A DNA stretch of 64,000 nucleotides from Parcubacteria group bacterium Gr01-1014_8 (GTDB lineage Bacteria > Patescibacteriota > Minisyncoccia > Phycocordibacterales > UBA2100): contig VMGC01000001.1 in the NCBI GenBank assembly GCA_007376385.1, positions 128,001 to 192,000 of the forward strand, given 5' to 3'. The notes under the pieces are model-generated. The model did no database searches. It was not told the origin of the DNA and saw only the letters and a list, made by a program, of their open reading frames with translations. The stretch's first letter is position 1; each line of letters begins with the position of its first letter. Shown here piece by piece: positions 4,249 to 18,404 of this stretch. A program made the translations under genes and the position numbers.

Positions 4249-4273
4249 CGGACGTGGTACGATACTGCTATCT

Positions 4274-5599
4274 ATGCGGGAGGCAGGGAAACGTATCCCG
4301 AGTATTCTTTTTTCAACTGGTGCGTTGGCGATTTCTCTGATTCTTATCCTGCCGTTGTTTGCTCATGCACAGTTCGGTTCAGGGAACGTAAAATATTGTA
4401 CCGGTATCGCGTGCCCATGCGACATGGGGCCCGGACCAAATTGCGCCTGCTGCAAGAAAACTCCCAGGCCAGCTGGTGGGGTTATAGGTTGTTATTGTGA
4501 AGAATCAGCGAATGGTAAAAAGTCGACAGGCACCTGCGTTGCGCCTGTGAATTGTAGTGCGTCGGCGTCGGAGGGATTGGGGGGCGACATGAAAGGTTTG
4601 ATGGATGCGTTGAAATTGCTTCAGGAGCTATTCAAGAAAAAAGAAGGTGGCGGAGGCGGAGGAGCCCCACCCCCGCCGCCTGGCGCACAAGAACCGCCGC
4701 CTTGCGTCGTAAATCCCGCAACAAAAACAAAGTCGCCGATTCCCTGCAAGGAAGCGAACGGGATGATCAATTATGGAGATGGAACCGACTTGAGCGGGTT
4801 TGGTTCTTCCGGCACGGGGTTAGGCGGGGATGGCAGTCTTGCCGATACACTCCTTAAAGCGCTCGGCGGCACCGTGTCGAGTTCGGGAGATGATTCGGAT
4901 GGAAGTAGCGAGGAGACATCGGATGACACGGGTGGTGCTGGGACCGGTGGTGGTAGCGCAGCCGGGGGTGGTGGTGCAAAGGCGGGAGGAAGCGCCGCAT
5001 TTGATCCGAAGAAATTGGAAGGCGATATTCGTGTCGGCGTTTCCGGTGGCACAATTTTTGCGCGCTCGCGTGACCCGGGCAGCAATACGGAAGTTGCGGG
5101 CTTTTTCGGAGGCAATGCGTTCAATGCAAATGCGTCGCGAAGCTTGGTCGGACGTCTTTGTGCTGCGCGCCCGTGGGCAGGCGGTATCATCGGGAGCATC
5201 ATCCCGCCTTCTTTCTTTGATGGATTGTGTAGGCGTGGTGGGTATCAGGTAGGTATAGTTGCTCTTCAGCCAGGTTCAGCAAAAGGCGGTAAAAAAGGCA
5301 CTATAACCATCACCGGCCAGAAGCAGCAGCGTCAAACGGTGGACTCGTCCACTATTGAAGCTGAAGTAGACATTTGGGCGGAGCCAGCGAGCGTACGTCT
5401 TGGCACACGGACATACATTTTCTGGACATCGAAAGGCGTCGAGTCATGCAAAGAGTCAGGTCCAAGCTTTTCGCAGAACAGTCCTTCCGGCGGCGCATCG
5501 ACTGTCCCGCTGTCGGGTAAAAGTATATTTACTATCGTCTGCTTGACTATAGCGAGCACAACAGTCGAAGATAGCGTCACGGTGAACTTGGCTTTATAG
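4274..5599 (+). CDS. Secreted Cys-rich protein with a poly-Gly/poly-Pro linker and a C-terminal Cys-framed beta domain (paralog family member 1).
   Basis: The signal peptide MREAGKRIPSILFSTGALAISLILILPLFAHA is followed by the Cys cluster CTGIACPCDMGPGPNCACCKK...GCYCEE...CVAPVNC. The linker is GGGGGGAPPPPPGAQEPPP. The C-terminal motif is W-TSKG-x-SC...FTIVCL...SVTV. Confidence 0.6.
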   Translation: MREAGKRIPSILFSTGALAISLILILPLFAHAQFGSGNVKYCTGIACPCDMGPGPNCACCKKTPRPAGGVIGCYCEESANGKKSTGTCVAPVNCSASASEGLGGDMKGLMDALKLLQELFKKKEGGGGGGAPPPPPGAQEPPPCVVNPATKTKSPIPCKEANGMINYGDGTDLSGFGSSGTGLGGDGSLADTLLKALGGTVSSSGDDSDGSSEETSDDTGGAGTGGGSAAGGGGAKAGGSAAFDPKKLEGDIRVGVSGGTIFARSRDPGSNTEVAGFFGGNAFNANASRSLVGRLCAARPWAGGIIGSIIPPSFFDGLCRRGGYQVGIVALQPGSAKGGKKGTITITGQKQQRQTVDSSTIEAEVDIWAEPASVRLGTRTYIFWTSKGVESCKESGPSFSQNSPSGGASTVPLSGKSIFTIVCLTIASTTVEDSVTVNLAL

Positions 5600-5609
5600 A
5601 ATTCTTAAG

Positions 5610-6080
5610 CTAGCGGTGCGTTGAAAAAAGAATGATTCCCGCTGCGACCGCGACGTTCAGGGATTCTTTAGAACCATGCATAGGAATTTCAATGAGAGTG
5701 TCGCAGGCGTTGCGGAGTTGCGATGAGATCCCCTTGATCTCGTTGCCAAAGATAAAGAATGTTTTTTTGCTCTGCTTGAAGCGACGGTAATCAATTGACC
5801 TTGTATCTTGTTCGACGCCGACGATGCGCCAGCCGTTCCTCTTGAGTTTTTTTATAAGGTGCGCAGGGGACGAACAGTATTTCCATGGGAGAGCATGCTC
5901 AGCGCCAAGCGCAGTTTTTGCGATATCTTTCCGTACGCGCCCAAAGCGGTCGATCGGCCTCGGCGTGTAGCCAGAAAGAAAAATGCGTTCAACGCCTGCT
6001 GCGTCAGCGCTGCGGAATATTGAACCGACATTATGGGTACTTCGAATGTTGTGAAGAAGAACCGCTCTCCTAGTTTTCAT
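5610..6080 (-). CDS. SpoU/TrmH-family RNA 2'-O-methyltransferase.
   Basis: SPOUT motifs are present: IRSTHNVGSIFRSADAAGVERIFL and FIFGNEIKGIS...LIEIPMHGSKESLNVAVAAGIILF. Confidence 0.8.
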   Translation of the reverse strand: MKTRRAVLLHNIRSTHNVGSIFRSADAAGVERIFLSGYTPRPIDRFGRVRKDIAKTALGAEHALPWKYCSSPAHLIKKLKRNGWRIVGVEQDTRSIDYRRFKQSKKTFFIFGNEIKGISSQLRNACDTLIEIPMHGSKESLNVAVAAGIILFSTHR

Positions 6081-6208
6081 AATGATCCCACTGTAATCTC
6101 TATGCCCTTCACTGTATACCCCGTGAGATAAAACAAGAATGACTTCCTTTAGAAATCTTTGATCGATGAATATTTTGCGCGTGCTGGGACATTTTCGCTA
6201 CCTATCTC

Positions 6209-6571
6209 ATGGGGTATACTGTCCGTATGCTGTCGCTTTTTCCAGAATTACTGTTTCTTGCGCCGTTCTCCGCGCTCGTCATTCGAGTAGCGGTTGCTGT
6301 CATCTTTGCGTTCAGTGCGTGGACGAGGATGCAAAGTGAGCAGACGCTATTGAAAGTCTTTGGAGCGATTGACGCGATACTTGCTGTCATGTTTCTCTCT
6401 GGCGGCTACACGCAGCTTGCCGCACTCATTGGCGCGGTGTGCGCGATTGCGTGGCTTTCTCGCACTTCGATACGGCCGCTTCCGGTGAGCACCGTGTGGC
6501 TCGCCCTTATAATGTGTATCTCCCTTCTCGTTACCGGTGCCGGTCCATTTGCGTTCGACCTGCCATTGTAA
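6209..6571 (+). CDS. Small polytopic membrane protein, DoxX-like; hypothetical.
   Basis: The 120-aa product has 3-4 hydrophobic helices. There is no catalytic motif. Confidence 0.45.
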   Translation: MGYTVRMLSLFPELLFLAPFSALVIRVAVAVIFAFSAWTRMQSEQTLLKVFGAIDAILAVMFLSGGYTQLAALIGAVCAIAWLSRTSIRPLPVSTVWLALIMCISLLVTGAGPFAFDLPL

Positions 6572-6777
6572 AGAACCCTGCGCCAGAGAACGTAGGGTGT
6601 TAAGAAACGTCTTTCAATGCAGGACCGGGAGACCTTTCCCGGAATAGGAACGACCCGCCGGTCGCACGTATTTGAAAGCGCGTCCATTCATTCTTGCGGT
6701 AAAGCGCAACGTTCTGGATGCGACCAGTAGGAAATTGCGATAGACGTTTCGCGCGCTGCCTGTTATAAGACTAGTAC

Positions 6778-6848
6778 CCCCTGGTAGCTCAATGGTAGAG
6801 CAGCTGCCTTTTAAGCAGTTGACGGAGGTCCGATTCCTCCCCGGGGGA
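6778..6848 (+). tRNA. tRNA-Lys, anticodon TTT.
   Basis: A hand-folded cloverleaf gives acceptor CCCCTGG/CCGGGGG, D-arm GCTC-AATGGTA-GAGC and anticodon stem-loop GCTGC-CTTTTAA-GCAGT. The T-arm is GGAGG-TCCGATT-CCTCC with discriminator A. No CCA is encoded. Confidence 0.85.
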
Positions 6849-7023
6849 AAGTTTTTTAAACTTCACACGGGAGAAGCGTGCAATGCACGCTTCGTGAAGA
6901 ATCGGACGCCGGAGCGATGTTTTGTCAGCAGACAAAACCGCGAGGCGGTGCCCAGACAAACTTTTGCGACGGCAAAAGTTTAGTCGCGGGAGATTCCTCC
7001 CCGGGGGAAAGTTTTTTAAACTT
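6849..7023 (+). repeat. tRNA-3'-linked conserved element, copy 1 (E1). It ends in a 32-nt duplicate of the tRNA-Lys T-loop-to-trailer sequence.
   Basis: GATTCCTCCCCGGGGGAAAGTTTTTTAAACTT occurs at 6832-6863 and again at 6992-7023. The intervening element carries core motifs identical to those at 21857-21944: ACGCCGGAGCGATGT at 6906-6920, ACCGCGAGGCGGTGCCCAGAC at 6937-6957 and AGTCGCGGGAGA at 6982-6993. Between the cores are hairpins that differ in sequence but retain pairing. Confidence 0.6.
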
Positions 7024-7081
7024 TGTATTCCGCGAAACGGGAATTTCCTATGCGAGCGTTAGCGAACAGGAAATAGGGATT

Positions 7082-8068
7082 TTAGTACACGTACGCATCA
7101 ACAGTTCGCCCGTCGTCATCAAGCAGCCGAACAACATCACGCTGGTCGCGCCAGAGTGCAGAGTCCGACTCCAGATACAAACGCCACGCCTCACGATCAA
7201 ATGAAGAGCGCATGTAGTGGCGATTCATGCATCCATTGTAGGAGAGTGTATTTTGCAAGAATGAGCGACACGCGGGGGATACAATCGATGGGACTTGCTT
7301 AGGAAACTCACACGTCGGAATGCTGTATATAAAATCGAAACACGCATCGCCATATTGGGAAAGATTTTCGGGCGTAAGCGGCAATTCACCGGAGGGGGAT
7401 GGGCAATTCAACGAGAGTGCTGGTTCAAATGTCTGGAACTGCGATATGTAACCGGTGCAAATATTTTCTCTGAAAGAAACGCCAACCGGGGAGGCGCCGC
7501 TTGCGATTATCGCGTACGCACCCGGTTCGAGCGATACCGAATTAACGGCGTTCACTGAGCCTCCTCGAAGTGGAGATGCGGCGGGAGGAAGTGCGATCCG
7601 AACCCCGGTAAGGGCGCTTTGCAAGGACCATCCTTCAAGTGAAATAGGGGTTGTGTTTTCGGCGCTTGCTTCGATGACAATATATTCGGCAGGTATGTCG
7701 GATGTTTGAGGATTTGAATATGCGCCAGAAATGTGCACGCTCCGGAAATACGGAGACGGGTCGCCGAATGTCATAACATCGTTAGGATTGCCGATGATCT
7801 CTCCGTACTGTCCTCCGGTATTTTCGGATGTTTGATCCGGGTTTGCGTTTGCCCCCGCGGCGTCCGGTCCAAATAAATCTTCTTCCTCAATGAATGAAAA
7901 AATGTTCGATGGCTGCCAGGGAAGTGCAAAATCCGTGGATGTCGAACCGGCGAAAGAGAAACTTTTTACCTGCGCGAAAATGCGTTGCGGGCCTTTATTC
8001 AATATCCATATGACAACGAGCGAGAGAATAATGAAGGCGAAGAGAGCAAGGATTATTTGCCGTATCAT
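7082..8068 (-). CDS. Membrane-anchored lamin-tail-domain (LTD) protein.
   Basis: An N-terminal TM segment (IILALFAFIILSLVVIWIL) is present. The C-terminal LTD-like pattern is IVIEASAENTTPISLEGWSLQS...EPGAYAII. Confidence 0.55.
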   Translation of the reverse strand: MIRQIILALFAFIILSLVVIWILNKGPQRIFAQVKSFSFAGSTSTDFALPWQPSNIFSFIEEEDLFGPDAAGANANPDQTSENTGGQYGEIIGNPNDVMTFGDPSPYFRSVHISGAYSNPQTSDIPAEYIVIEASAENTTPISLEGWSLQSALTGVRIALPPAASPLRGGSVNAVNSVSLEPGAYAIIASGASPVGVSFRENICTGYISQFQTFEPALSLNCPSPSGELPLTPENLSQYGDACFDFIYSIPTCEFPKQVPSIVSPACRSFLQNTLSYNGCMNRHYMRSSFDREAWRLYLESDSALWRDQRDVVRLLDDDGRTVDAYVY

Positions 8069-8072
8069 GCAC

Positions 8073-9338
8073 TTATACTACCGCACTCACGCCGCTCTTT
8101 TGCAGTTTCTCCAGCTCTTCCCTGGCAACTCCTGAATCGCTCCATGGTATTTTTGTTCCGCGCGGACCGTATATGCAGGGATCGGTACCTTTTCCTGTTA
8201 TAAGCACCGTATCGCTAGAGCGCGCGAGCTGGAGCGCATGCCTGATTGCTTCGCGGCGGTCCATACGAATTTCAGGAGACCTTTTCATGCCACGAGCAAG
8301 GCCCTCTACTATCGAGCGAGGATCTTCATCGCACGGGTCTTCGTTCGTCAAAATGACTGTTTCGCACATCCCATCAGCAATACTCCCCATCACGGGCCTT
8401 TTCCATATATCCCTGCCGCCGCCCATAGAACCGAGCACACAAATCTTTCGGCCGCGATATGCGCTGTAAATGGCGGCCAGGGAATCCGGCGTGTGCGCGT
8501 AATCAACAATGACGGTGAAATTTTGTCCTGCTTCCACGCGCTCCGCGCGCCCGGGTATATGCTTTAGCGAATCGAGGCCGCGAGCGATGACAGACGTTTT
8601 TATCTTCATAAGACGCGCCAGTGTCGCTGCCGCGAGGGCATTCGTTATGGAAAATGCACCGGGCAAATGTATGCGCAGTTCCTCTGTATCAAATTGGAAT
8701 ACGCCGCCGCGTTCATCCGTTGTCCATGAATCAAGAGAAGAAAGAGCGAATGGGATACAATGCTCTACTTGTAATCCCAGGAAACGAGAAGCCTGCGCGT
8801 CATCGGAGTTTGCCAGCATGTAGCGAGGTCTTTTGTGCGAACGTTCAAGCTGCAGTCCCAGCTGGAGTTTTGCATTGGCGTACTTTTGCAGTGACCCGTG
8901 GGATTCAATGTGTTCCGGTGCAAGGTTCAGAAAGATAAGCGCGTTCAGTTCGATTGCGCGATGACGATGTTGCCGGGCGCCTTCTGATGTCATTTCAATA
9001 AATGCAATGTTGCATCCTGCCCTCGATGCCAGGTAGAGGAATTTTTGGGTGAAAAAACGGCCCCCCATTGTCATGCGCATTAGATTCGGCTCAGAGTGCG
9101 AATCGATTTTCATTCTGATAGTGCTCACGAGCGCAGTTTTGTAGCCGGCTTCTTCAAAAATGGCGTTCAAAAATTCGATAGTGCTGGACTTGCCTTTCGT
9201 GCCAGTTACACCGACAACCATAAGTTCACGAGACGGAAACGCATACAGAGCGGCAGCGAACCACGCGAGAATGAAGTGATATGCAGAAAAAATTGGCGAT
9301 GGTATGACAGCGTGCAGGAGATTCTTCAAGGATCCCAT
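8073..9338 (-). CDS. murE: Mur ligase family protein, MurE-like UDP-N-acetylmuramoyl-tripeptide synthetase.
   Basis: Motifs include the P-loop GVTGTKGKSST, VDYAHTPDSL and LITGKGTD. The track ORF extends to 9524. The in-frame ATG at 9338 (MGSLKNLLHAV...) gives a typical N-terminus and a 4-nt gap to ruvA. Confidence 0.7.
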   Translation of the reverse strand: MGSLKNLLHAVIPSPIFSAYHFILAWFAAALYAFPSRELMVVGVTGTKGKSSTIEFLNAIFEEAGYKTALVSTIRMKIDSHSEPNLMRMTMGGRFFTQKFLYLASRAGCNIAFIEMTSEGARQHRHRAIELNALIFLNLAPEHIESHGSLQKYANAKLQLGLQLERSHKRPRYMLANSDDAQASRFLGLQVEHCIPFALSSLDSWTTDERGGVFQFDTEELRIHLPGAFSITNALAAATLARLMKIKTSVIARGLDSLKHIPGRAERVEAGQNFTVIVDYAHTPDSLAAIYSAYRGRKICVLGSMGGGRDIWKRPVMGSIADGMCETVILTNEDPCDEDPRSIVEGLARGMKRSPEIRMDRREAIRHALQLARSSDTVLITGKGTDPCIYGPRGTKIPWSDSGVAREELEKLQKSGVSAVV

Positions 9339-9342
9339 ACGT

Positions 9343-9915
9343 TTATGCTGAGCCCAATATCTTAAGCGCTTCGCGCAGACGCTCGTTTGATTTTTCAATG
9401 CTGGACGGGACTTTTCGGAGCGCATCTCGCGCCTCCTGCGTCGAATATCCAAGAGCGCGCATAGCATCGAGTGCTTCCTCGTCGCCTTTAAGAGAGGCGC
9501 TTGTGCTCTCTGTTGCGCTGCCAACCTTGTCCCGTAATTCGAGCACTATCTTTTCCGCTGTTTTTTTGCCGATGCCTGATACCTTCGTCATATATTCTGC
9601 TTTTCCATGGACGATTGCGGAGCGGAGCGTCTCTATGGATGCGACATCAAGGATGGCAAGGGCGGATTTAGGACCGATCCCAGAGACAGTAAGAAGCAGC
9701 TCAAAAAAACGAAGCTCTTCTTCTTGCTCAAAGCCGTACAGGTCTAACGCGTCCTCGCGCACCGCAAGGTGCGTCCATAGGGATGCCTTCGCGCCTACGG
9801 AGAGGAGGGAAAGTATCTGTTTTGTTGCGGCGACCTTATAGCCCACTCCTCCGACGGAAATAATGGCACGTCCATCTCGGAGCGCTTTCACGATGCCTTC
9901 AAGGTGAGCGATCAT
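9343..9915 (-). CDS. ruvA: Holliday junction DNA helicase subunit RuvA.
   Basis: The product starts MIAHLEGIVKALRDGRAIISVGGVGYKV. Helix-hairpin-helix motifs follow (LLTVSGIGPKSALAIL, VSGIGKKTAEKIVLEL). The start was refined to the ATG at 9915. Confidence 0.85.
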   Translation of the reverse strand: MIAHLEGIVKALRDGRAIISVGGVGYKVAATKQILSLLSVGAKASLWTHLAVREDALDLYGFEQEEELRFFELLLTVSGIGPKSALAILDVASIETLRSAIVHGKAEYMTKVSGIGKKTAEKIVLELRDKVGSATESTSASLKGDEEALDAMRALGYSTQEARDALRKVPSSIEKSNERLREALKILGSA

Positions 9916-9996
9916 AGTTGTAAGTATCGAGTATCGCACCGTAAGTATCAAGCAGGCATTGCAAGGTACAGTGATATTAGGTAGTATCCCGCTGTT

Positions 9997-10260
9997 ATGG
10001 CGATCACAAGTTCCGCAAAGAAAGCCCAGCGCTCATCCCTAAAGCGGCGCGTTTTTAACGCTCGCAGAAAGAAAGCAATGAAGGATGTCGTGAAGGATGT
10101 CGCCCAATTGGTATCGAAGAAGGACTTGAAAGAGATTGCGCTGCTTCTTCCGAAGGTGTACCAGAACATTGATAAAGCGGCAAAGCGCGGCGTCATCAAG
10201 GCGAACGCAGCTGCCCGCATCAAATCGCGTCTCTCAAAGCGTATCGCGGCACTCTCCTAG
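9997..10260 (+). CDS. rpsT: 30S ribosomal protein S20.
   Basis: MAITSSAKKAQRSSLKRRVFNARRKKAMKDVVKDV... shows the typical S20 basic helical pattern. Confidence 0.85.
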   Translation: MAITSSAKKAQRSSLKRRVFNARRKKAMKDVVKDVAQLVSKKDLKEIALLLPKVYQNIDKAAKRGVIKANAAARIKSRLSKRIAALS

Positions 10261-10285: not shown

Positions 10286-11374
10286 GTGAAAATCAACAAA
10301 GCGCTTGTGGTGCTTATTTTGGTTTCGCTGCTCATTTTCTTGAGCGTTGCTCTCGTTGTGTTGGCGTTTTCGAATAAGGTTTCCATTGAGAGTTTCTTTA
10401 CTGGCAGAAAAGCATCAAAAGAGCTGAAAACAACGATCGCATCGTCGCAGCCGGAAAAGTGCCCGCAGGACTCTACACATTTCGAATGCCTTGAGCGCTA
10501 CTACAGTGCGCTCGTCACACTAAACGGTGTCACTGCTGCGTTTGATGATTTGCGCATGCGTCAAGAAAAAGACGAGTTCATACGAGACCAGTGTCATCCT
10601 CTTGCGCACGTGATAGGACGAGCGGCGGCGATGCTCTATCCTTCGGTGTGCGAAGCGTTCAATGACGGCGATGCAACGTGTTGGTCAGGTTATTACCACG
10701 GGGTGATGGAAACAACCGCAGAAAATATCGGACGAGACGGTATTGAACAGCAATTGAATGATATGTGCGCAGGAATTCCGCGCGATGGAAATAATTGGCT
10801 GCACTATTTTTACTGTGTCCATGGGCTTGGACATGACATCATGGCTATTTTAAATGACGAACTCTTCGAGTCGCTTGAAATATGCGACACATTGCGCGGT
10901 TCCTGGGAGCGGGATTCATGTGTAGGCGGTGCATTTATGGAAAATGTCATTGCCGATCATAGTGGCCACAAAACAAAATACTTAGACGCCGAGCGGCCGC
11001 TATATCCATGCACCGATGTACAGGAGCGATTCAAGGAGCAGTGTTATTTGAATCAAAGCTCGTACATGCTCAAGATACTTGGAGGAGATTTCGTGCAAGC
11101 CTTTGATCTATGTGGATCGGCGGGAGAACCGTATGCCAACAGGTGCTATGAATCGCTTGGGCGGGATGCCGTAAGTTACGGAAAAAGCGAGCCTTCACTT
11201 ATTTTTGAACTATGTGACAAGGCGATAACGGACGAGCAGCGTGCGCACTGCGTCATAGGAGTCGTCGATTTTCTTGTTACCTACGAACCTAAAGAACACG
11301 CGGAACAATTTTGCGCAATTTTTTTAGGCTCTTTGCAGAGCGAGTGTACGGCTCGCATCGAATCGCATCTCTGA
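10286..11374 (+). CDS. Membrane-anchored/secreted Cys- and His-rich repeat protein; hypothetical.
   Basis: An N-terminal TM segment is followed by about six degenerate repeats of C-[VWY]-x-G-x-x-[HM]. Examples are CHPLAHVIG, CWSGYYHGVM, CVHGLGHDIM, CVGGAFMENV, CYESLGRDAV and CVIGVVDFLV. Confidence 0.5.
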   Translation: MKINKALVVLILVSLLIFLSVALVVLAFSNKVSIESFFTGRKASKELKTTIASSQPEKCPQDSTHFECLERYYSALVTLNGVTAAFDDLRMRQEKDEFIRDQCHPLAHVIGRAAAMLYPSVCEAFNDGDATCWSGYYHGVMETTAENIGRDGIEQQLNDMCAGIPRDGNNWLHYFYCVHGLGHDIMAILNDELFESLEICDTLRGSWERDSCVGGAFMENVIADHSGHKTKYLDAERPLYPCTDVQERFKEQCYLNQSSYMLKILGGDFVQAFDLCGSAGEPYANRCYESLGRDAVSYGKSEPSLIFELCDKAITDEQRAHCVIGVVDFLVTYEPKEHAEQFCAIFLGSLQSECTARIESHL

Positions 11375-11433
11375 AAGCCCATGAAGCCTCTCTCGTGATT
11401 ATTTCTGAAAAAAGTCCGTGTTAGTGTGTTTAG

Positions 11434-12924
11434 GTGGTAACTTCAACGTTCGCGAAGTTTCGGCTTCCTCGCGTTGCGACGCTCGATGACCTTTTTGGCA
11501 TTGACGTTCGTTCATTGGCGCTTGTTCGTGTTTCGATAGGTGCGCTTATCCTCTACGATCTTTTTGTGCGGGCCATCTCCCTCACGGAACATTATGGAGA
11601 CAACGGCGTTTTTTCAAGTGCGCTCATCCAATCGTACTGGCCGTTCGAATATGCTTGGTCGCTTCATCTGCTGGCGGGCGGGCCGCTCGTCGTGGTCGTT
11701 ACATGTTTCATCGTACATGCATGCGCAACCGCGGCTCTCTTGGTGGGATATAAAACACGCATCGCAACATTTCTGACTTTCATGCTCCAAATATCGCTGT
11801 ACCACGCGAATCCGATACTTTTATACGGAGTAGACGATATCATTCGCACGGTTTTATTCGTTGGGATCTTTTTGCCGTGGGGCGCTGCGTACTCCTTCGA
11901 TAGTTACTTTCGGCAAACTGCCTCACCCCATAAGCGAGCGTTATCCATGTGGACGGCGGCTTTTTTGCTTCAACTCGGTTTTTATTACTTGTTCGCCGCG
12001 TCAACAAAAATTGGTCCCGAATGGCTAGACGGCAGCGCCGTCTATTACGCCCTTTCATTTATTCCGGACCAGACATCGCTCGGCGTCTTTATGATGCAGT
12101 TCCCACATCTGCTAACGCTTGCCACGTTCGGTGTTCTGATCCTGCAAAGCATCGCGCTCATTCTCTTATTCAGTCCTATTTTTACAATGTCGCTACGTTT
12201 GCTCGCTCTCGGAGCGCTTATCGGTATGCACGCCTCATTCGGCGTTTTACTTCAGCTCGGGATCTTTTCCTGGGTTGCGATAGCTGCGCTCCTTGCTTTC
12301 ATGCCCTCTTTTTTTTGGGATGCAATCGAACATTACCTCGGAAGAAACCCGCCAATAGCAAAAACTCTTAAAAGTGAGGAACAAAAAACGATTTTCCAGG
12401 CGTTATGTGAGGCGACAGCAGCTATGCTCGGCTTTTTATACATCGTGTACATTTTCACGTGGCAAGCGAGCAATTCCACTTTTTTTCAGTCAGATGTTCA
12501 TTTTCCGAATGGATTGGTTGTTGTTGCAAAAGTACTTAGAATCGATCAGACATCCGGACTTTTTGCTCCCTCCCCACCTCGTTCGAGCGGGTGGTATGTC
12601 ATTTCTGGACAATTGGCGGATGGCGAAGAAATTGATCTTCTTCGGGATGGTGCGCCGGCAACATATGAGCGCTCTGATAGCATGGAAGCTGTTCATCGAA
12701 CGTATCGAGTACAGTCGTTTATGTTGAACACCATGAGCTGGCGATATCCAGAGTATCGCCCAACGTACGCAGCATATTTGTGTAAAAAGTGGAATGAAAA
12801 TAATTTTGAGTCTCGAAGACTCCTGCAGGTAAAATTAATTTATATGGCAATCGAGACTCCGGAGCCGGGAATACCGCCGTCTCCCGTCGAGCGTGTAACA
12901 TTGTATGAACAGACGTGCAGTTAG
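11434..12924 (+). CDS. HTTM domain protein (vitamin K-dependent gamma-carboxylase-like transmembrane domain).
   Basis: The N-terminal pattern FGIDVRSLALVRVSIGALILYDLF and multiple TM helices fit HTTM proteins. There is an additional C-terminal soluble domain. Confidence 0.6.
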   Translation: MVTSTFAKFRLPRVATLDDLFGIDVRSLALVRVSIGALILYDLFVRAISLTEHYGDNGVFSSALIQSYWPFEYAWSLHLLAGGPLVVVVTCFIVHACATAALLVGYKTRIATFLTFMLQISLYHANPILLYGVDDIIRTVLFVGIFLPWGAAYSFDSYFRQTASPHKRALSMWTAAFLLQLGFYYLFAASTKIGPEWLDGSAVYYALSFIPDQTSLGVFMMQFPHLLTLATFGVLILQSIALILLFSPIFTMSLRLLALGALIGMHASFGVLLQLGIFSWVAIAALLAFMPSFFWDAIEHYLGRNPPIAKTLKSEEQKTIFQALCEATAAMLGFLYIVYIFTWQASNSTFFQSDVHFPNGLVVVAKVLRIDQTSGLFAPSPPRSSGWYVISGQLADGEEIDLLRDGAPATYERSDSMEAVHRTYRVQSFMLNTMSWRYPEYRPTYAAYLCKKWNENNFESRRLLQVKLIYMAIETPEPGIPPSPVERVTLYEQTCS

Positions 12925-13224
12925 GAACGCACCTCTCTGTGCAGTATTCTTGAATTAGTCCGAACGCACTTTTCCGAAAAAATCCTCCCGCGAAAATTCG
13001 GAAAGGCGGCGCCTGCCCGCCGAAGCCTCGGCGCAGGCGGGGAGCCGCACCGCTGTAGATTTTCTTGCGTAAAGTATATATCTCATATTGTTTGTGGATC
13101 AAGGATCAAAAAATTTTCTTCCCCCAAAATGCGAAACCGTGAATTTGTTTTTACCCCCAAAATCCAATACAAATTAGTCGCCGAGCGAAGCGAGGCGAAC
13201 CAAAACTCTTTGACTTTTCCTTTC

Positions 13225-13299
13225 TGGTGCCCTCGGCAGGAATCGAACCTGCATTTCTTCCTTCGCAGGGAAGTGTCCTATCCATTGAACGACGAGAGC
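13225..13299 (-). tRNA. tRNA-Arg, anticodon GCG, with genomically encoded CCA.
   Basis: The reverse-complement fold gives acceptor GCTCTCG/CGAGGGC and D-arm GTTC-AATGGATA-GGAC. The anticodon stem-loop is CTTCC-CTGCGAA-GGAAG and the T-arm is GCAGG-TTCGATT-CCTGC. Discriminator A is followed by CCA. It is the only tRNA here with encoded CCA. Confidence 0.65.
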
Positions 13300-13985
13300 G
13301 GAGCGCCAGCAATCTTTTCCTGAATCGCGTACGCAAAGCCGAGTATCTCCTTTCTTATACTGCTGTCAAGGTAACAGATAAAACAGAGACCCATGAAATT
13401 CTGTCGGAATTTCCTCATCTTACTTCTCGGTTTGATCCAAATCTTGCCAGTTTGAGATAGCGGAATTTTTGTTAGTTTTGACCAGTAGTTCTTCGTCTTT
13501 TCTATATCGTGGTAGTGATGGACATGAATCCGCAATCGTAACCTTTTTTCGTCGATCGTGTAACACTTTCGGAGCAAAGCCATGTAAAGGAATATCATTT
13601 TAGGATCGGTGTTTGCGAAGCGGAGTCCCGAAACCTTGTTGTGTTTTGTCCCCTCCGCCCAATACAGCATCGCAAGAAGAGATTTCATATATGTCATATC
13701 TTTGTGCGTGATTAGTTTTGCCATTTCTTTTCCGCGCAAAACATAAACCTTGTCACGTTTTTCTTTTGCGGCTCGTAGAGAAGAGGCCGAGATTGTACGG
13801 GCACGTTTGAGATGTTCCAAGCGCAATGTTTCGGTAAATACTCCGGGGTATTTATGACCAAGCCATGTACACAATGTGCTCCTTGGTATCGACAGTTCTC
13901 TTTGAATTTGCAAATATGATTTTCCACTTCTGCGCAATTTTGCGGCAGTTTCTTTTACTGCTTCAGAATAAAAAGTACCACGCAT
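13278..13985 (-). CDS. HTH plus LAGLIDADG-like homing endonuclease family protein.
   Basis: An N-terminal HTH (GKSYLQIQRELSIPRSTLCTW) is present. A single LAGLIDADG-like motif (LLAMLYWAEGTKH) is present. The region is AT-rich. The 3' end overlaps tRNA-Arg (13225-13299) on the same strand. Confidence 0.5.
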   Translation of the reverse strand: MRGTFYSEAVKETAAKLRRSGKSYLQIQRELSIPRSTLCTWLGHKYPGVFTETLRLEHLKRARTISASSLRAAKEKRDKVYVLRGKEMAKLITHKDMTYMKSLLAMLYWAEGTKHNKVSGLRFANTDPKMIFLYMALLRKCYTIDEKRLRLRIHVHHYHDIEKTKNYWSKLTKIPLSQTGKIWIKPRSKMRKFRQNFMGLCFICYLDSSIRKEILGFAYAIQEKIAGAPLSSFNG

Positions 13986-14109
13986 AAAAACAATACGCTT
14001 CCAATCGTACAGTATAGATACACTACAGGTCAGTATCTATATTCGTTCTTTGTGGATAGCTGCGGTTTCCACAGATGTTCATTGCGCGAGGAACTTGTAG
14101 GGCGCATCA

Positions 14110-15984
14110 TTGGGGCACATGTCCCCCGGGAACTCTCTTGTTGCTGGAGTTGTTTTGGTTGGCCTCTTGGGTTCTCTTGCGGTTGCGCTGCAATCTTCTA
14201 ATCCCAATGTAGAATCCGTCGAACAAGTGGCTGCAGCAAAGTTTGCTGAAGGTCCGCCTCCGGCGATCAAGACAAAAACCGGTGGGACACAAGTCGGAAA
14301 AATGGAACAATGTGATTCTGGGACCGAGCATCGAATTATCGAGACGGGGACAGGACAAGGGTATAGATTTGAGCGAAAAGTGACAGATGCACAGTTAAAA
14401 AAAGATTGCGAAGAGAAAAAAAAGACAGGAGATATTTGCAAAGGCACGGTTAAGTTTTGCCTTGATCCAAGATTGCAAGGCGATGCGAAAGCAAAATCTG
14501 ACGCGGGCAAGGGCCCCGAAGTTGATTGCGGCAATATTAATGAAAAATGTGTCCCAGGAGCAGCAATAAATCCGAATGAGGTACGAAAGAGTCACGCGCC
14601 GGGTGTTTTGAAGGATAATTACTTGGCAGCGGTGAAGGCCGGAGACAAACAGATGGCGGATGCAATTAAGACAGCTGCGCAAGCGAATCCGGAATATAGT
14701 AAAGTGCTCGATTCGTTTATAGATGAGGATATAAAAGCCGTCGATGAAGATAAGGGACTTAAAGTTAAAGATTTAAATAGCGTTGAAGAGCAGCTTGCTA
14801 ATCTTAACGCGCAAGCAAATTGTGCCGGCGAGACAACCGATGAAGGGTATTCGGCCTGCATGATGAAGCAAGGACAAATGAAAGATGATCTTTTGAAACA
14901 ACAGTCAGATCTCAAAAAGCAGATTGTGGATCTTGAAGAACAAAAGAAACGACTTGCTGAGGCAAAAGTTGCCTTAAAGGCGCCTGCTGCCCCTCAAAGT
15001 CCACAATCACCTCAGAGTCCTCAATCTCCGCAAAGTCCACAGGCTCCCCAGTCGCCGCAAAGTCCTCAGAGTCCTTACAATCCGCAGTCACCGCAAAGCC
15101 CTCAATCGACGTTCCCTCAGCAAGGACAGCAACCGCAGGCGGGAAAAGGCGGCCAGCAAAAAGGTGGAGGCGGTGGGAGCCAACCACAGCCGCGGCCAAA
15201 CCCTGTCCAGCAGTGCCAGCAAGGGCAATATCAGTCGGTACAACAACAGCAGTATTCGTATTGTACGAACGGCGAGAATGGTCCCGGGATATACACGTAC
15301 AACAGCTACACGTGTAAGTATCAACTCGCGCAGCAGTGCCCGTACGGCTGCGCCGGCGTCGGCTCCGCTTCGAATCCGACTTACTACGTGACCAATCCCG
15401 GCGGGCAAAGCAATTCCTGTGCGCCTGCTCCAAACACGCAACCGCAACAGCCGACTGCGGAATTGAAATGCGGCGGCTCGGGCAAGCGTGATGTGGGCAT
15501 GAAGGTGCCAATCTCGTATACGTGCGGCAATTCGGTGAAAGCAACGGCAAGCGGATTCACGATCTCGAGCGAGACGACTTTGTCGGGCTCTGCTGAGCCG
15601 GAAATCAAGAAGCCTCCGCGAGGAACGAACATTGTCACCTACGGGCTTACGTGCACATCTTCAAATGGTCAGACTGCGACCGGAAAATGTGACGTCGAGA
15701 TAAACGTTACGTCGCTCATTTTTGTCTCAAACCCACAGAAACTTGATCTAAGCGAAGATGAAGATGACAAGGCGTTACTCGGATGGGTTACCAAAGGTAT
15801 GAAATCATGCCATGTCAGCAGCGATGCGTTCTCTGAATTCACGCAGGAGAACGAGAGTAACGATAGTGTGTCAGGCACAGTGAAAACTCCTGTCTTGACG
15901 GGTGACGCAACATTTGAATTGACGTGCGAGACGAATGGCGGTCAAGAAAAGTCGATTGAGCTCACCATCGACGTCGAGGCGTAA
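14110..15984 (+). CDS. Secreted Cys-rich protein with a coiled-coil, an SPQ tandem-repeat linker and two C-terminal Cys-framed beta domains (paralog family member 2).
   Basis: The signal peptide is MGHMSPGNSLVAGVVLVGLLGSLAVALQSS. The Cys cluster is CDSG...DCEEKKKTGDICKGTVKFC...DCGNINEKC. A (PQS)n repeat follows. The C-terminal motifs LLGWVTKGMKSCHVSS...ATFELTCETNGG...IELTIDV match the C-terminus of the 4274-5599 protein. Confidence 0.6.
   Translation: MGHMSPGNSLVAGVVLVGLLGSLAVALQSSNPNVESVEQVAAAKFAEGPPPAIKTKTGGTQVGKMEQCDSGTEHRIIETGTGQGYRFERKVTDAQLKKDCEEKKKTGDICKGTVKFCLDPRLQGDAKAKSDAGKGPEVDCGNINEKCVPGAAINPNEVRKSHAPGVLKDNYLAAVKAGDKQMADAIKTAAQANPEYSKVLDSFIDEDIKAVDEDKGLKVKDLNSVEEQLANLNAQANCAGETTDEGYSACMMKQGQMKDDLLKQQSDLKKQIVDLEEQKKRLAEAKVALKAPAAPQSPQSPQSPQSPQSPQAPQSPQSPQSPYNPQSPQSPQSTFPQQGQQPQAGKGGQQKGGGGGSQPQPRPNPVQQCQQGQYQSVQQQQYSYCTNGENGPGIYTYNSYTCKYQLAQQCPYGCAGVGSASNPTYYVTNPGGQSNSCAPAPNTQPQQPTAELKCGGSGKRDVGMKVPISYTCGNSVKATASGFTISSETTLSGSAEPEIKKPPRGTNIVTYGLTCTSSNGQTATGKCDVEINVTSLIFVSNPQKLDLSEDEDDKALLGWVTKGMKSCHVSSDAFSEFTQENESNDSVSGTVKTPVLTGDATFELTCETNGGQEKSIELTIDVEA
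14992..15108 (+). repeat. Tandem 9-bp (Pro-Gln-Ser) repeat inside the CDS, about 13 units.
   Basis: cctcaaagt ccacaatca cctcagagt cctcaatct ccgcaaagt ... encodes PQSPQSPQSPQSPQSPQAPQSPQSPQSPYNPQSPQSPQS. The units show synonymous variation. Confidence 0.75.
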
Positions 15985-15990
15985 CTCTTT

Positions 15991-16467
15991 CTAGAAGCCA
16001 AAGAATTCCAGTATTTTGTGTGCGAGAGGCTCTTTCATCGGGACTTCAGGCGCGCGTTCGCGCAAATATGCGCGTATTTCCTCGGGGTTTGCGCCGCCGA
16101 TGGGTATGACGAGATTCGGCGACATGAATTTAACCGTATCAACAAGAAGAAGCGGCTCTTCTTCTTGGTTTTCGGTCTCGACCCAGAACGCAAGTATTTC
16201 TTCGTATGTGTGCAATGTAGAGCTGACCGTGATGCCGCGCTCCGATATCTCGAAATCATGCAATTCGGGCGGGGTCTGCGCGATAAGCGCGATAACGCCT
16301 GCCGCAACAATAATGAGAAGTGCAAAGAGAACATTTCCAAAGAGGAGAGAGGTTACTGCCGCACACACTGCTATGATACCGAGCGCCCAAAACCAATCGC
16401 TCGAGCGTTCGATGTGTTCGTGTTCATATGCGCTCCAGCGTATCGGAGAAGCGGAAGATTCCGGCAT
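15991..16467 (-). CDS. Hypothetical membrane protein with 2 TM segments plus a soluble domain.
   Basis: The 158-aa ORF contains WFWALGIIAVCAAVTSLLFGNVLFALLIIVAAGVIALI. No known motif was found. Confidence 0.45.
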   Translation of the reverse strand: MPESSASPIRWSAYEHEHIERSSDWFWALGIIAVCAAVTSLLFGNVLFALLIIVAAGVIALIAQTPPELHDFEISERGITVSSTLHTYEEILAFWVETENQEEEPLLLVDTVKFMSPNLVIPIGGANPEEIRAYLRERAPEVPMKEPLAHKILEFFGF

Positions 16468-16542
16468 GACAACATTGTACTATGAGAAAAATTCCTCTTT
16501 TGATGTTGGTGCCGAGAATGTGAGCATGGTACAACAATCCGT

Positions 16543-16628
16543 GGAGGGGTCGCATAGCGGTCTAGTGCAGCGGTCTTGAAAACCGCCAGGTCTAATAGGC
16601 CTCGCGAGTTCGAATCTCGCCCCCTCCG
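16543..16628 (+). tRNA. tRNA-Ser, anticodon TGA.
   Basis: The acceptor is GGAGGGG/CCCCTCC and the anticodon stem-loop is GCGGT-CTTGAAA-ACCGC. There is a long variable arm. The T-arm is GCGAG-TTCGAAT-CTCGC with discriminator G. Confidence 0.85.
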
Positions 16629-16638
16629 CAGAAAACGT

Positions 16639-17049
16639 ATGACCCGGATCATGGTGTTTGGAACTTTCGATATGGTCCACGAGGGCCATGTAAATCTTTT
16701 TCAGCAAGCACGCTCTCTTGCGCCTGCCCCATTCTTGATTGTTTCAGTCGCCCGTGATGCTGTCGCGACGCGTATCAAGGGCTTCGCGCCGCAGCACCTT
16801 GAAGATGAGCGTCGCGCCCTTGTCAAGAAAAATGTGCTCGTAGATAAAGCAGTTCTCGGAGATAAAAAAGGTTTCGTTGAACATATTGCGCATGAAACTC
16901 CAGACATTATTGCGCTCGGATATGACCAGAGCGGTGAATACGTCGACGGGCTTGAAGCAAAACTAGGAGAGATGGGACTTTTCCCAAAGATAGTTCGGTT
17001 GCAGCCGTACAAGCCGGAGACTTTCAAAACGTCTATACTTCGGCAATAG
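16639..17049 (+). CDS. Cytidylyltransferase-like nucleotidyltransferase (FAD synthase/RibL-like, HxGH motif).
   Basis: [25 protein letters not shown] carries the (T/H)xGH signature. The track ORF at 16576 overlaps tRNA-Ser; the ATG at 16639 is the likely start. Confidence 0.65.
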
Positions 17050-17057
17050 TATCGGGT

Positions 17058-17447
17058 ATGCGTTATCTTGGAATTGATTATGGGACGAAGGGCGTCGGGC
17101 TCGCAATCTCTGACGAGAGTGCGCAGTTTGCATTTCCATTCGCTGTTTTTCCGAATGATCAAAAACTCCTCGAAAATATCTTGGACGTTATACACGATAT
17201 GAATATCGCTCAGATAATTGTCGGCGACACTCGTGCGGAAGGCGGAGCTTCGAATAGGATAACTGAAGAAGCGGAACAATTCATGTCTGACCTTGCTGGT
17301 GCGATCAACCTTCAAGTGCACCGTGTGCGCGAGGCGTGGAGCTCTGTCGAAGCGTCTCGTTTTGCACCGAAGGGAAAAGAAAGAGATGATGCGGCTGCTG
17401 CCGCGATCATTCTTCAGCGATTTTTAGATGTCCACAAAGCAGTGTAG
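17058..17447 (+). CDS. ruvX: Holliday junction resolvase-like protein YqgF/RuvX.
   Basis: MRYLGIDYGTKGVGLAISDESAQFAFPFAV matches the RNase H-like YqgF N-terminus. Confidence 0.8.
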   Translation: MRYLGIDYGTKGVGLAISDESAQFAFPFAVFPNDQKLLENILDVIHDMNIAQIIVGDTRAEGGASNRITEEAEQFMSDLAGAINLQVHRVREAWSSVEASRFAPKGKERDDAAAAAIILQRFLDVHKAV

Positions 17448-17471
17448 CTACTTCCACTGTAGTGATACGAT

Positions 17472-18404
17472 GTGAGAGTGAAAACCGCATCGTCAGGGCG
17501 AGTGCTCTCGGCTCATGTGTGGGGTTTTGTATTGGTTGCCACAATCAGTGTCGTCTTGGGTGCAGCACTGATACGCAACACCGTTCAAGCCGCACCGGCG
17601 ACTACAGACCCAGGGGCAAAATGCGGGGACCCGAAGTTTACGATACCGGACCCTCCATCAATGGAGTTGGTGAACGATGAACACTACAGCAAGGCAAAAT
17701 GGAAAGAATGCATCAAAAAAAGTTGCGAGAAGAAGATAGAAGGAAATTCGGGCTGTTTTGATAAAGACAGTGCAAAATGCAAAGAATACTGTAATAACAA
17801 GTTGACAACGAAAGGCAAAATTACAGGGCAGTGTTGCTCTGAGGTGGTTGAGAAGGGTGGAAAGGATATATGTACCGACGGGCCATGCCAGCCGCCACCG
17901 GGCAAGAAAGCGGGAGGTGAAAAACCTCCGACTGGGGGCGGCAAACCGCCTCCGGGAGGAGGCGAAAAGAAACCTGGGGGAGGTGAAGAGAAACCGCCCG
18001 GCGGTTTACCAGAGATTCCCAAAGGTGGCGGAGAAAAGAAAGAGACGCCGCCTCAAACTACACCTCAAGACCCGTGCGCAGTCGGTGGGGTAGATTGGAG
18101 TACTTCTAAGTGTCGAAATACGGCGCTCGATAAATTAACGGATCTTGCCGGAGATGCCTCGTCTGCGGTCACAGAATCGGCAAAAAAACTTGGCATGATG
18201 ATCATTGGTCCGGTACAGCATTTGTTGACAGGCGATGGACAAAATACTGCGGAACCCGCAACGTACAATGACGTGCCGTTTGCAGGGGTAACGGGCTTTG
18301 GAAATACCGGGACGTCGGGGACGGATGAGAGTTTTCTGCAAAGCGTGGCGGCTAGCCTTAGCCAGCTCTACGGCGCTCTCAATGATCTGTTCACCTGGTT
18401 CTGA
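17472..18404 (+). CDS. Secreted or membrane-anchored Cys-rich protein with a Gly/Pro/Lys/Glu repeat linker (paralog family member 3).
   Basis: The start is GTG. The signal anchor is VWGFVLVATISVVLGAALI. The Cys cluster is KCGDP...KWKECIKKSCEKK...GCFDKDSAKCKEYCNN...GQCCSEV...DICTDGPCQ. The linker is PPPGKKAGGEKPPTGGGKPPPGGGEKKPGGGEEKPPGG. Confidence 0.55.
   Translation: MRVKTASSGRVLSAHVWGFVLVATISVVLGAALIRNTVQAAPATTDPGAKCGDPKFTIPDPPSMELVNDEHYSKAKWKECIKKSCEKKIEGNSGCFDKDSAKCKEYCNNKLTTKGKITGQCCSEVVEKGGKDICTDGPCQPPPGKKAGGEKPPTGGGKPPPGGGEKKPGGGEEKPPGGLPEIPKGGGEKKETPPQTTPQDPCAVGGVDWSTSKCRNTALDKLTDLAGDASSAVTESAKKLGMMIIGPVQHLLTGDGQNTAEPATYNDVPFAGVTGFGNTGTSGTDESFLQSVAASLSQLYGALNDLFTWF

Follow-up and report, generated by a model that had tools for sequence, protein, structure and literature searches.

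Three open reading frames in the window (the whole stretch of 64,000 nucleotides analysed here) encode exported, cysteine-rich proteins of similar layout. The question raised by this locus is whether they derive from one ancestral gene, as proposed in a first-pass annotation that described them as three paralogous proteins. The source organism is a tiny Parcubacteria (CPR) bacterium. The reading frames at 4274–5599, 14110–15984 and 17472–18404 are all present in the ORF listing, and the genes are referred to here as A, B and C:

4274–5599, forward strand: gene A, 441 amino acids, a secreted modular protein (ORF listing)
14119–15984, forward strand: gene B, 621 amino acids when started at the ATG at 14119, a stalk protein anchored at its N-terminus and carrying two Ig-like end domains
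17472–18404, forward strand: gene C, 310 amino acids, a lineage-restricted exported Cys-rich protein, between ruvX and a tRNA-binding-domain gene

Proteins identical to A (441 residues) and C (310 residues) are recorded at NCBI under Parcubacteria group bacterium Gr01-1014_8. The number of cysteines is even in each protein (16 in A, 20 in B and 12 in C), and cysteine content is 3.6%, 3.2% and 3.9%, respectively, compared with medians of 0.45–0.74% for 53 window genes. Within the window this enrichment is confined to exported proteins. Each protein has a single N-terminal hydrophobic segment, consistent with the signal peptide or anchor noted previously, and the low-complexity linkers are evident in all three on inspection of the sequences and, for B, as DNA repeats. 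Pfam and NCBIfam contain no match for A, B or C, in keeping with the earlier remark that no family could be named, and PDB sequence searches with the three proteins were empty. Scans of 120 A-family and 10 B-family members likewise assigned the shared architecture to no Pfam family. The three genes probably encode independent modular proteins, exported to the surface of a Kaiserbacteria-related Parcubacterium and rich in disulfides, and do not form a paralogous family of three members.

Relationships among the three proteins

A and B show detectable similarity to one another by BLASTP (E = 9e-5) and HMM search (E = 3.5e-6), and their family profiles align with an hhalign probability of 89.8%. 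For the C-terminal domain, the last ~80 residues, this rises to 96.9% (E = 1.9e-10). The C-terminal motif reported as common to A and B is thus real and homologous. Its reported duplication in B is less clear, as the copy at residues 446–535 is only weakly similar to the others (hhalign, 20.7% to the domain of A and 39% to the last domain of B). Neither A nor B matches C, with BLASTP E-values of 2 or more and hhalign probabilities of 0.1–0.3%. The Cys modules of the three proteins do not match one another either (hhalign probability <1%), and the description of their cysteines as closely spaced fails for B, where the eight that precede the linker are spread over ~180 residues including a helical stalk. 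HMMs of the A modules matched nothing further in a six-frame translation of the window. Judged from these comparisons, the sole module common to A and B is one Ig-like domain, and C is unrelated to either.

Derivation by duplication from a single ancestral gene for a secreted Cys-rich protein would account for the same order of elements in all three proteins (export segment, Cys module, Gly/Pro-rich linker, C-terminal part) and for the homologous terminal domain of A and B. By eye, A and C also share a Cys pair after the linker, behind which comes a short L-x-D-x-L motif of helix-like character, and the last four cysteines of the module in A (CxC-x12-C-x5-C) resemble those in C (CC-x11-C-x4-C). 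However, BLASTP, HMM and profile–profile comparisons find no similarity beyond the one Ig-like domain, and A and B each belong to a separate orthologous family in other genomes. C is an insertion missing from close relatives, its slot being empty in CP066682.1 and JACRFI010000006.1. Linker composition varies even between orthologues; in B the window has PQS repeats, CP066682.1 has GT repeats, and JACRFI010000006.1 has GGNP/GGSP repeats. A common origin of all three genes is therefore very improbable, and paralogy is largely refuted at the sequence level. The common layout of anchor, Cys module, linker and C-terminal domain is instead a convergent 'beads on a string' design. What survives of the original observation is the set of Cys-rich exported reading frames, their linkers and the motif shared by A and B; of its interpretation, the extracytoplasmic, Cys-rich character and the lack of a named family stand, and the paralogous family does not.

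Modules of A and C

At least 142 homologues place A in a large family of Kaiserbacteria and related Parcubacteria. In the window, JACRFI010000006.1 and CP066682.1 it directly follows polA and a holA-like gene. Its parts are as follows:

4274–4369, forward strand: Sec signal peptide, residues 1–32, ending ...LPLFAHA↓QF, with the family-conserved motif P-x-x-[ATV]-x-A
4397–4555, forward strand: N-terminal Cys module, residues 42–94, 10 Cys
4586–4747, forward strand: helix, Gly6-Ala-Pro5 hinge and disulfide-framed hairpin C144...C158, from conservation and pLDDT
5006–5263, forward strand: alpha/beta core domain, residues 245–330, 85 amino acids, with the invariant pair C296/C319
5357–5596, forward strand: C-terminal Ig/PKD-like beta-sandwich, residues 362–441, with invariant C392/C423, the only element in common with B

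The N-terminus is predicted to be a textbook Sec signal peptide. It is the least conserved part of the protein (20% pairwise identity, compared with 53–65% for the domains), and the signal peptidase I motif is conserved while the surrounding sequence varies, with P at -6 in 73 of 87 sequences, A, T or V at -3 in 78 of 92, and A at -1 in 79 of 94. Twelve cysteines are 93–100% conserved across the family. Six of the ten in the N-terminal module are family-conserved (C42, C49, C60, C75, C88 and C94), and residues 74–99 are predicted by AlphaFold2 to form a three-stranded sheet (pLDDT 83–88). The linker reads GGGGGGAPPPPP. In the segment of helix, hinge and hairpin, G126 and G128 are nearly invariant, conservation reaches at least 90% for C144, P157 and C158, and residues 141–160 have an AlphaFold2 pLDDT of ~90. 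Further invariant residues of the core domain are E273, F277, R299, W301, D316 and G323.

The NCBI record identical to A (P0001) bears the name 'TrbL protein'. Reading A as a TrbL/VirB6-type part of a type IV secretion system is almost certainly wrong; nothing other than this label favours it. TrbL/VirB6 proteins are polytopic and encoded in secretion clusters, whereas A is a soluble secreted protein, its one N-terminal hydrophobic segment being a cleavable signal peptide, and lies beside polA and the holA-like gene. A has no Pfam match at E ≤ 1, none of 120 family members matches TrbL, and no VirB4 or other secretion-system gene occurs in the conserved neighbourhood. Topology and profile searches thus refute this identity. 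The likeness extends to a Gly/Pro-rich low-complexity stretch and nothing more, and this stretch is probably the source of the label.

C is far more restricted. A word-index search recovered only the protein itself, and among 1.84 billion representative proteins there is one relative (P0124, E = 2.1e-13), which occupies the same slot after RuvX. The two proteins align with eight of ten cysteines and the GGG and PPP runs conserved. That an orthologue sits in the same slot and keeps the cysteines indicates that C is a real gene. Its distinctive region is:

17622–18071, forward strand: 10-Cys Lys-rich module (residues 51–139), then a Gly/Lys/Pro spacer (residues 140–200)

The spacer is built of GGGxKPP-like units. 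Signal peptidase I probably cleaves C at VQA↓A, and its relative at VEA↓D. From its sequence, C is predicted to be a small Sec-exported Cys-rich protein, close to an orphan and known from two genomes only.

Gene B and type IV pilins

The longest reading frame of B begins with TTG at 14110. The ATG at 14119, giving MSPGNS, is most likely the start, because orthologues begin MSRGNS. Relatives occur in 26 species-representative genomes, and the family is syntenic 3' of rpsT in the window, CP066682.1, JACRFI010000006.1 and a further locus (L001). The elements of B and of its surroundings are:

14119–14208, forward strand: conserved hydrophobic helix at the N-terminus, its junction resembling that of prepilins, MSPG↓NSLVAGVVLVGLLGSLAVAL
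14602–14985, forward strand: charged alpha-helical, possibly coiled-coil, stalk, residues 165–292, inferred from sequence
14986–15204, forward strand: low-complexity spacer of PQS-like triplets, then a Gln/Gly-rich stretch
15205–15444, forward strand: Gln-rich six-Cys module (QQCQQGQY...CPYGCA), conserved in the B family and unrelated to the modules of A and C
15445–15981, forward strand: two Ig-like domains, residues 446–535 and 536–624, the last homologous to the C-terminal domain of A
15991–16467, reverse strand: DUF5673-like protein, two membrane segments, in convergent orientation right next to the stop codon of B (Pfam E = 2.2e-4, short of the curated cutoff)
2–1129, reverse strand: type IV pilus ATPase resembling PilB, truncated at the window edge (Pfam T2SSE, E = 2.6e-64)
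18652–20432, forward strand: PilM and PilN-like gene, 250 bp 3' of C (PilM_2, E = 3.3e-30; PilN, E = 0.006, weak)

Charged residues make up 34% of the stalk, Pro and Gly are scarce, the hydrophobic periodicity is 3.6, and its matches to coiled-coil proteins are weak and sub-threshold. The 13 PQS-like triplets of the spacer correspond to DNA repeats of 9, 18 and 36 bp at 14992–15105. Some relatives carry extra modules after the Ig-like domains that vary between species; one (L030) has an appended Inhibitor_I9 and Peptidase_S8, this subtilase being the sole significant Pfam match among the scanned members. The DUF5673-like neighbour also occurs at three other loci (L001, L005 and L006), and the position of the PilB-like ATPase is likewise occupied in relatives.

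A tentative possibility is that B, alone among the three, is a type IV pilin-like protein, giant and modular, that lacks Glu5. The prepilin peptidase would cut its short basic leader after an invariant Gly, and its helix would be seated at the pilus tip, as for GspK/PilK and S. sanguinis PilA. The stalk, the Ig-like domains and the subtilase of one relative would then be pilus-borne adhesive or effector modules, comparable to PilB and PilC. The N-termini of 17 species give the consensus [KR]-G↓[YAVNLS]-S-[IVL]-[LI]-[AG]-[AGS]-L-V-x-V-[AG]-x-L-[GS], with G in 17 of 17, S or T at +2 in 17 of 17, and G or S at +14 in 16 of 17, and the helix aligns in register with a canonical Kaiserbacteria pilin (RG↓FTLIELLVVIAIIGLLASIV). 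In contrast to a Sec signal peptide the helix is conserved, equally so with the rest of the protein (40% and 33% pairwise identity). A canonical pilin gene lies ~0.95 kb downstream of B in nine of 21 loci with sufficient flanking sequence, and PilB, PilM and PilN genes flank the region. Modular and Glu5-less pilins (PilB, PilC and PilA of S. sanguinis, and the GspK/PilK tip subunits) resemble B in their short basic leader, whose last residue is an invariant Gly, and in a hydrophobic helix of ~20 residues with S/T at +2 and G/S at +14. Large non-pilin modules behind the helix and type IV pilus genes nearby are further common features, and Glu5 is missing from GspK/PilK and S. sanguinis PilA as well. 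Modular pilins are reported to bear bulky modules, Glu5-less pilins to cap the pilus tip, and the degenerate class III signal peptides of the latter to be missed by detection tools (PMC9934059).

However, Pfam N_methyl and NCBIfam TIGR02532 matched none of 15 B N-termini while matching a control pilin, and an HMM of the B N-terminus reached canonical pilins with E-values of 2.5–8.5 at best. Glu5 is found in no member of the family, +5 being A, G or S, and no pilin-type alpha/beta globular domain is recognised after the helix. Basic residues followed by a hydrophobic stretch are a feature of any N-in signal anchor. The neighbouring pilin and pil genes belong to a wholly syntenic, mostly housekeeping block, and the window genome has no pilin gene beside B. 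B-family proteins, at 600–1200 amino acids, are also far larger than known modular pilins and lie outside a minor-pilin operon.

Possible roles at the cell surface

For three separate exported proteins, the most likely role predicted from sequence is disulfide-stabilised surface display or adhesion; an adhesin or effector role is plausible. A would leave the cell through Sec, with signal peptidase I releasing it at P-x-x-[ATV]-x-A. About six conserved disulfides would hold the small modules strung along the mature protein: the six-Cys module, the Gly-rich hinge, the Cys-closed hairpin, a disordered acidic Ser/Thr spacer, the 85-residue core and the Ig-like domain. Members of the B family would be retained at the cell by the conserved hydrophobic helix, beyond which would follow the charged helical stalk, the fast-evolving low-complexity spacer, the Gln-rich Cys module and the two Ig-like domains. 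In all three proteins the cysteines may form disulfides after export that rigidify the small modules, and the low-complexity stretches may span the wall as flexible spacers. Display of the distal Ig-like and add-on modules would serve adhesion to host or partner cells or action on external substrates. No LPXTG, SLH or other recognisable wall anchor occurs in any of the three sequences, and A and C may therefore just be released. The synteny partners of the three genes are housekeeping genes (polA, rpsT and ruvX), so synteny carries no functional information.

A structural function is less probable: the three proteins could be wall-spanning scaffolds or an S-layer-like coat, part of the core housekeeping surface architecture and not host-directed adhesins or effectors. 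A and B each occur as one syntenic copy per examined relative, and their families recur in many related genomes, a pattern expected of core structural genes more than of host-interaction genes, which evolve fast. The core and Ig-like domains of A are 53–65% identical across the family, and Foldseek matches the Ig-like domain best to the PKD domain from a surface-layer protein of an archaeon. However, SLH, PG_binding and other wall-binding modules are absent, while PG_binding_1 is found in other window proteins. The spacers and C-terminal add-ons of B vary strongly between species, which is more typical of interaction proteins, and C is nearly an orphan.

The Ig-like fold is itself generic, occurring in adhesins, plain spacers, enzymes and SoxY. 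Comparison with Ig-like/PKD proteins (invasin/intimin, the Lap adhesin extender, RbmA, collagenase PKD and archaeal S-layer PKD) shows long tandem arrays in the surface proteins but one or two domains in A and B, which no Pfam model matches, PKD and Big included. The known surface proteins have no counterpart to the Cys modules or to the core domain of A. This core, with its invariant E273, R299 and D316, is the most conserved part of A, and a fold search with it gave no match; it could be enzymatic rather than adhesive.

Relationships among the Cys-rich proteins

The proteins A, B and C, together with a fourth Cys-rich product, are encoded at the following positions.

Cys-rich proteins encoded in the window
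4274–5599, + strand: protein A, ORF of 441 aa with 16 Cys
14110–15984, + strand: protein B, longest ORF of 624 aa with 20 Cys
17472–18404, + strand: protein C, ORF of 310 aa with 12 Cys
10286–11374: fourth Cys-rich exported protein, 362 aa with 17 Cys (4.7%) and an N-terminal anchor

A, B and C have export-type N-termini and a Cys content of 3.2–3.9%, against a median of 0.45–0.74% (53 window genes). The descriptive layout in the first-pass annotation holds: the ORFs, the high Cys content, one N-terminal hydrophobic segment and one low-complexity linker are found in each. Cys enrichment is restricted to exported-type proteins, and Cys pairs are conserved. Among the other window genes only the 10286–11374 protein reaches a comparable Cys content, and it shows no relationship to A, B or C by HMM. 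NCBI has identical copies of the A and C proteins, both from a 407,897-bp contig. The true start of B is likely the ATG at 14119, because its orthologues begin MSRGNS.

A, B and C are not paralogues, as they had been taken to be; homology across them does not extend beyond one C-terminal domain of A and B. The sole pairwise BLASTP link joins residues 384–425 of A to residues 559–608 of B (E = 9e-5), and comparison of C with either protein gives E ≥ 2. By hhalign, C matches the A and B families with probabilities of 0.1–0.3%, and the Cys modules of the three proteins match one another with probabilities below 1%. Across all six reading frames of the translated window, the HMM of the A-family C-terminal domain found B (E = 3.5e-6), and the A-family HMMs for the Cys module, mid hairpin and core domain found no other match. 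When the profile of the A family, built on 120 sequences, is compared with that of the B family, the last 81 columns alone align (89.8%, E = 1.8e-6). The shared C-terminal beta-domain proposed earlier therefore stands for A and the last domain of B (hhalign 96.9%, E = 1.9e-10). The second copy proposed in B, its penultimate domain, shows only weak similarity (20.7% to the domain of A, 39% to the last domain of B), and C lacks the domain.

Given that profile homology ends at this one domain, the common order of anchor, disulfide module, spacer and distal domain is, judged from sequence, a convergent design. Spacer composition differs among B orthologues, with PQS repeats in the window, GT in CP066682.1 and GGNP/GGSP in JACRFI010000006.1. 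The possibility that C is a diverged copy of the N-terminal half of A was also considered; the layouts are alike by eye, but hhalign lends this no statistical support. The result is ordinary in kind, as it concerns modular surface proteins, so far uncharacterised, in a CPR bacterium; it mainly corrects an over-reading.

Families and genomic context

At E ≤ 0.001 a homologue search with A recovers at least 142 proteins. Most come from MAGs of Kaiserbacteria and Parcubacteria, and all 142 lack a Pfam domain. Twelve Cys are 93–100% conserved in the family (six in the N-terminal module, C144/C158, C296/C319 and C392/C423); the Gly run is conserved too. The core domain (GD-x-VG...TEVAGFFGG...GRLC-x-RPW...FFDGLC...GYQVG) has 53% identity across the family and the terminal domain 65%. 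The signal peptide is variable (20% pairwise identity), with a signal-peptidase I motif that is nonetheless kept: P at -6 in 73/87, A/T/V at -3 in 78/92 and A at -1 in 79/94. A and C both carry a predicted Sec signal peptide of n-h-c pattern, with small residues at -3/-1. AlphaFold2, run on the 120-sequence alignment, models residues 70–100, 141–170, 245–330 and 362–441 of A with confidence and leaves the linkers disordered. A fold search with full-length A matches the Ig-like domain only, and the core domain has no fold match.

The window, the complete genome CP066682.1 and JACRFI010000006.1 share one gene order: T2SSE (PilB-like)–polA–holA-like–A–...–SpoU–LTD protein–Mur ligase–ruvA–rpsT–B. 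The 240-aa gene upstream of A is holA-like on our own reading of its sequence, and a Pfam scan of it gives no match. The spacing between it and A is 25 bp. Promoter-like sites show no enrichment (15 against 13.8 expected), so the operon claim is limited to this tight spacing. A LAGLIDADG-like gene directly follows the A orthologue in CP066682.1. In the window a tRNA-Lys (6778–6848) is followed ~160 bp downstream, at ~6990–7025, by a 32-bp exact copy of its 3' end and downstream T-run (gattcctccccgggggaaagttttttaaactt), which looks like an att-type remnant of an integration or excision event. The LTD (lamin-tail) protein (7082–8068, - strand) has an N-terminal anchor and scores just under the Pfam cutoff (E = 1.4e-7); its position is kept in all related loci examined.

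NCBI names A 'TrbL protein', a label that should be corrected. VirB6/TrbL is a polytopic membrane protein (PMC12102498). It is encoded with T4SS genes, whereas A has a single, cleavable hydrophobic segment and adjoins polA and the holA-like gene, with SpoU as a further neighbour, in the window and both relatives. T4SS genes are absent from this neighbourhood, and no profile supports the name: Pfam gives no hit on A at E ≤ 1 and no TrbL match in 120 family members.

A word-indexed search with B finds only two relatives; synteny and a pattern-based genome scan find orthologues in 26 species representatives. All are ordered in the same way: an N-terminal helix, a Cys-containing region, a charged helical stalk (in B, 34% charged residues with a hydrophobic periodicity of 3.6), a variable spacer, a Gln-rich six-Cys module and two Ig-like domains. 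Extra C-terminal modules occur in some relatives, and distal modules are swapped between species. One addition of this kind is listed here.

Protease-bearing relative of B
CAYRHX010000013.1 (locus L030), 2162–5794: ~1211 aa, with an Inhibitor_I9 propeptide and a Peptidase_S8 subtilase behind the Ig-like domains (E = 5e-46)

A different extra C-terminal domain of ~130 aa (...LWLVD...GxYxWTLP...DLVAGRxYxIxAxLYTP...) is common to five other loci (L010, L013, L019, L020 and L028). With its fixed order and variable C-terminal additions, the architecture of B appears to behave as a display stalk. The gene at 15991–16467 (- strand), for a DUF5673-like product with two membrane segments, converges on B and borders on its stop codon throughout the relatives examined; nine species have a canonical pilin gene behind it. 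Upstream, rpsT and B are separated in the window by a block at 10286–12924, a tRNA-Arg (13225–13299) and an ORF (13278–13985). The block holds the fourth Cys-rich protein and an adjoining polytopic membrane protein with an HTTM (vitamin-K-carboxylase-like) domain (Pfam E = 8.9e-12). On a related contig (L001) B comes directly after rpsT, and the block is missing.

Protein C has a much narrower distribution. A word-indexed search returns nothing beyond C itself, and phmmer, run on the full set of 1.84 billion representatives, returns one relative, P0124 (E = 2.1e-13, 37% identity). The gene for P0124 directly follows ruvX on another metagenomic contig, the same slot as that of C. P0124 keeps 8/10 module Cys, the Gly/Pro spacer, the DPC...C pair and the C-terminal Y-x-A...L...F tail, and the putative signal-peptidase site of C (VQA↓A) aligns with VEA↓D. 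In CP066682.1 and JACRFI010000006.1 a tRNA-binding gene stands immediately behind ruvX and C is absent. From this placement C is evidently a real gene and a lineage-restricted insertion. Nearby, a tRNA-Ser (16543–16629) overlaps the 5' end of the longest cytidylyltransferase-like ORF (16576–17049), whose true start is therefore further downstream.

The earlier statement that none of the three belongs to a named family is borne out. Pfam and NCBIfam scans at E ≤ 1 give no usable result. Family-wide Pfam searches of 120 A and 10 B members give spurious matches only, save for the subtilase fused in one B relative, and PDB sequence and profile searches with A, B and C return only low-complexity or coiled-coil noise (E ≥ 0.24). 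The modelled C-terminal domain of A and B superposes on Ig or PKD domains, and is thus predicted to be an Ig-/PKD-like beta-sandwich. It falls in no curated family (PKD, Big_x and the like): A has no Pfam or NCBIfam hit, and B has just Arch_flagellin at E = 0.17. In the window and 33 further loci the domain matches A and B orthologues alone. A role as a sorting or anchoring signal, comparable to T9SS C-terminal domains, was rejected because the domain is internal in several B relatives, with further modules behind it. CPR bacteria are not known to possess an outer membrane, and this also counts against a T9SS-like signal.

The N-terminus of B and type IV pili

The N-terminus of B may be a class III signal peptide with a pilin-like helix, a reading we regard as possible but doubtful. 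In 17 species a basic leader is followed by Gly and then by [YAVNLS]-S-[IVL]-[LI]-[AG]-[AGS]-L-V-x-V-[AG]-x-L-[GS]. Counted from a putative cleavage behind this Gly, position -1 is Gly in 17/17 (preceded by Arg in 10/17), Ser or Thr is invariant at +2, Gly or Ser occupies +14, and +3 to +20 are hydrophobic. B has the short basic leader, the Gly at -1 and a hydrophobic helix of ~20 residues, in register with the canonical pilin of its own lineage (RG↓FTLIELLVVIAIIGLLASIV). In contrast to the signal peptide of A, this segment is conserved no less than the remainder of the protein (40% vs 33%). However, Glu at +5 is absent from the B family, where the position holds Ala (13), Gly (3) or Ser (1). 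Pfam N_methyl (PF07963) and NCBIfam TIGR02532 recognise 0/15 B N-termini but 1/1 control pilin (E = 7.4e-10 and 4e-10), an HMM of the B N-terminus gives no significant match to pilins (E = 2.5–8.5), and no pilin globular domain is evident.

Pilins without Glu5, such as GspK and S. sanguinis PilA, occupy the tip of the pilus; prediction tools miss the degenerate class III signal peptides of such pilins, and modular pilins bear bulky adhesive modules (PMC9934059). B resembles these two tip subunits in lacking Glu5. A canonical pilin gene lies ~0.95 kb downstream of B in 9 of the 21 loci with sufficient flanking sequence, and genes for PilB, PilM and PilN are on the flanks of the region. However, the neighbourhood of B is syntenic as a whole block, so that adjacency to pil genes is weak evidence. 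It would be a further and rather improbable step to regard the B family as a new class of very large modular pilins without Glu5, capping type IV pili in Parcubacteria of the Kaiserbacteria type and showing Ig-like modules, or in some species protease modules, to a host. B would then be a host-contact device of presumed episymbionts, and A a secreted partner or a competitor for the same ligand. According to two reports, episymbiosis of Saccharibacteria is driven by type IV pili (PMC9894109, PMC12206443). If real, the pilin-like N-terminus of B, one lead worth testing, would connect such pili with a specific adhesin or protease module on display, and would do so in another CPR lineage.

Surface display and other features of the window

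Within the preferred scheme of display, A and C would be released by signal peptidase I, and B would be held by its N-terminal helix in the membrane, or possibly in a pilus. Disulfides would rigidify the modules and flexible spacers separate them, so that they may be presented outside the membrane for binding, or for catalysis in the protease-bearing relative. A purely structural role in the envelope is an unlikely alternative for the three proteins; LPXTG is absent from their sequences, and Pfam gives no SLH or PG_binding hits. Parcubacteria are uncultivated. The A and B families recur in Kaiserbacteria and related Parcubacteria, at the same chromosomal positions in the relatives examined. 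Both are of the exported type and absent from Pfam, and the core of A matches no known fold, which makes the two families sensible candidates for work on structure and localisation.

Further envelope genes, whose products are not Cys-rich, occur at 55048–58404, 62589–63578, 39231–41195 and 59291–61510. They encode two PG_binding_1 proteins (1118 and 329 aa), one protein with DUF11 and one of the Wzy_C type (O-antigen-ligase-like) that has TPR repeats. Free-standing HTH or LAGLIDADG-like ORFs are found in the window at 13278–13985 (- strand) and 22279–23199 (+ strand), and at 11315–12058 of a related locus (L005). HNH/TRASH zinc-ribbon ORFs occupy 27327–27824 of the window.
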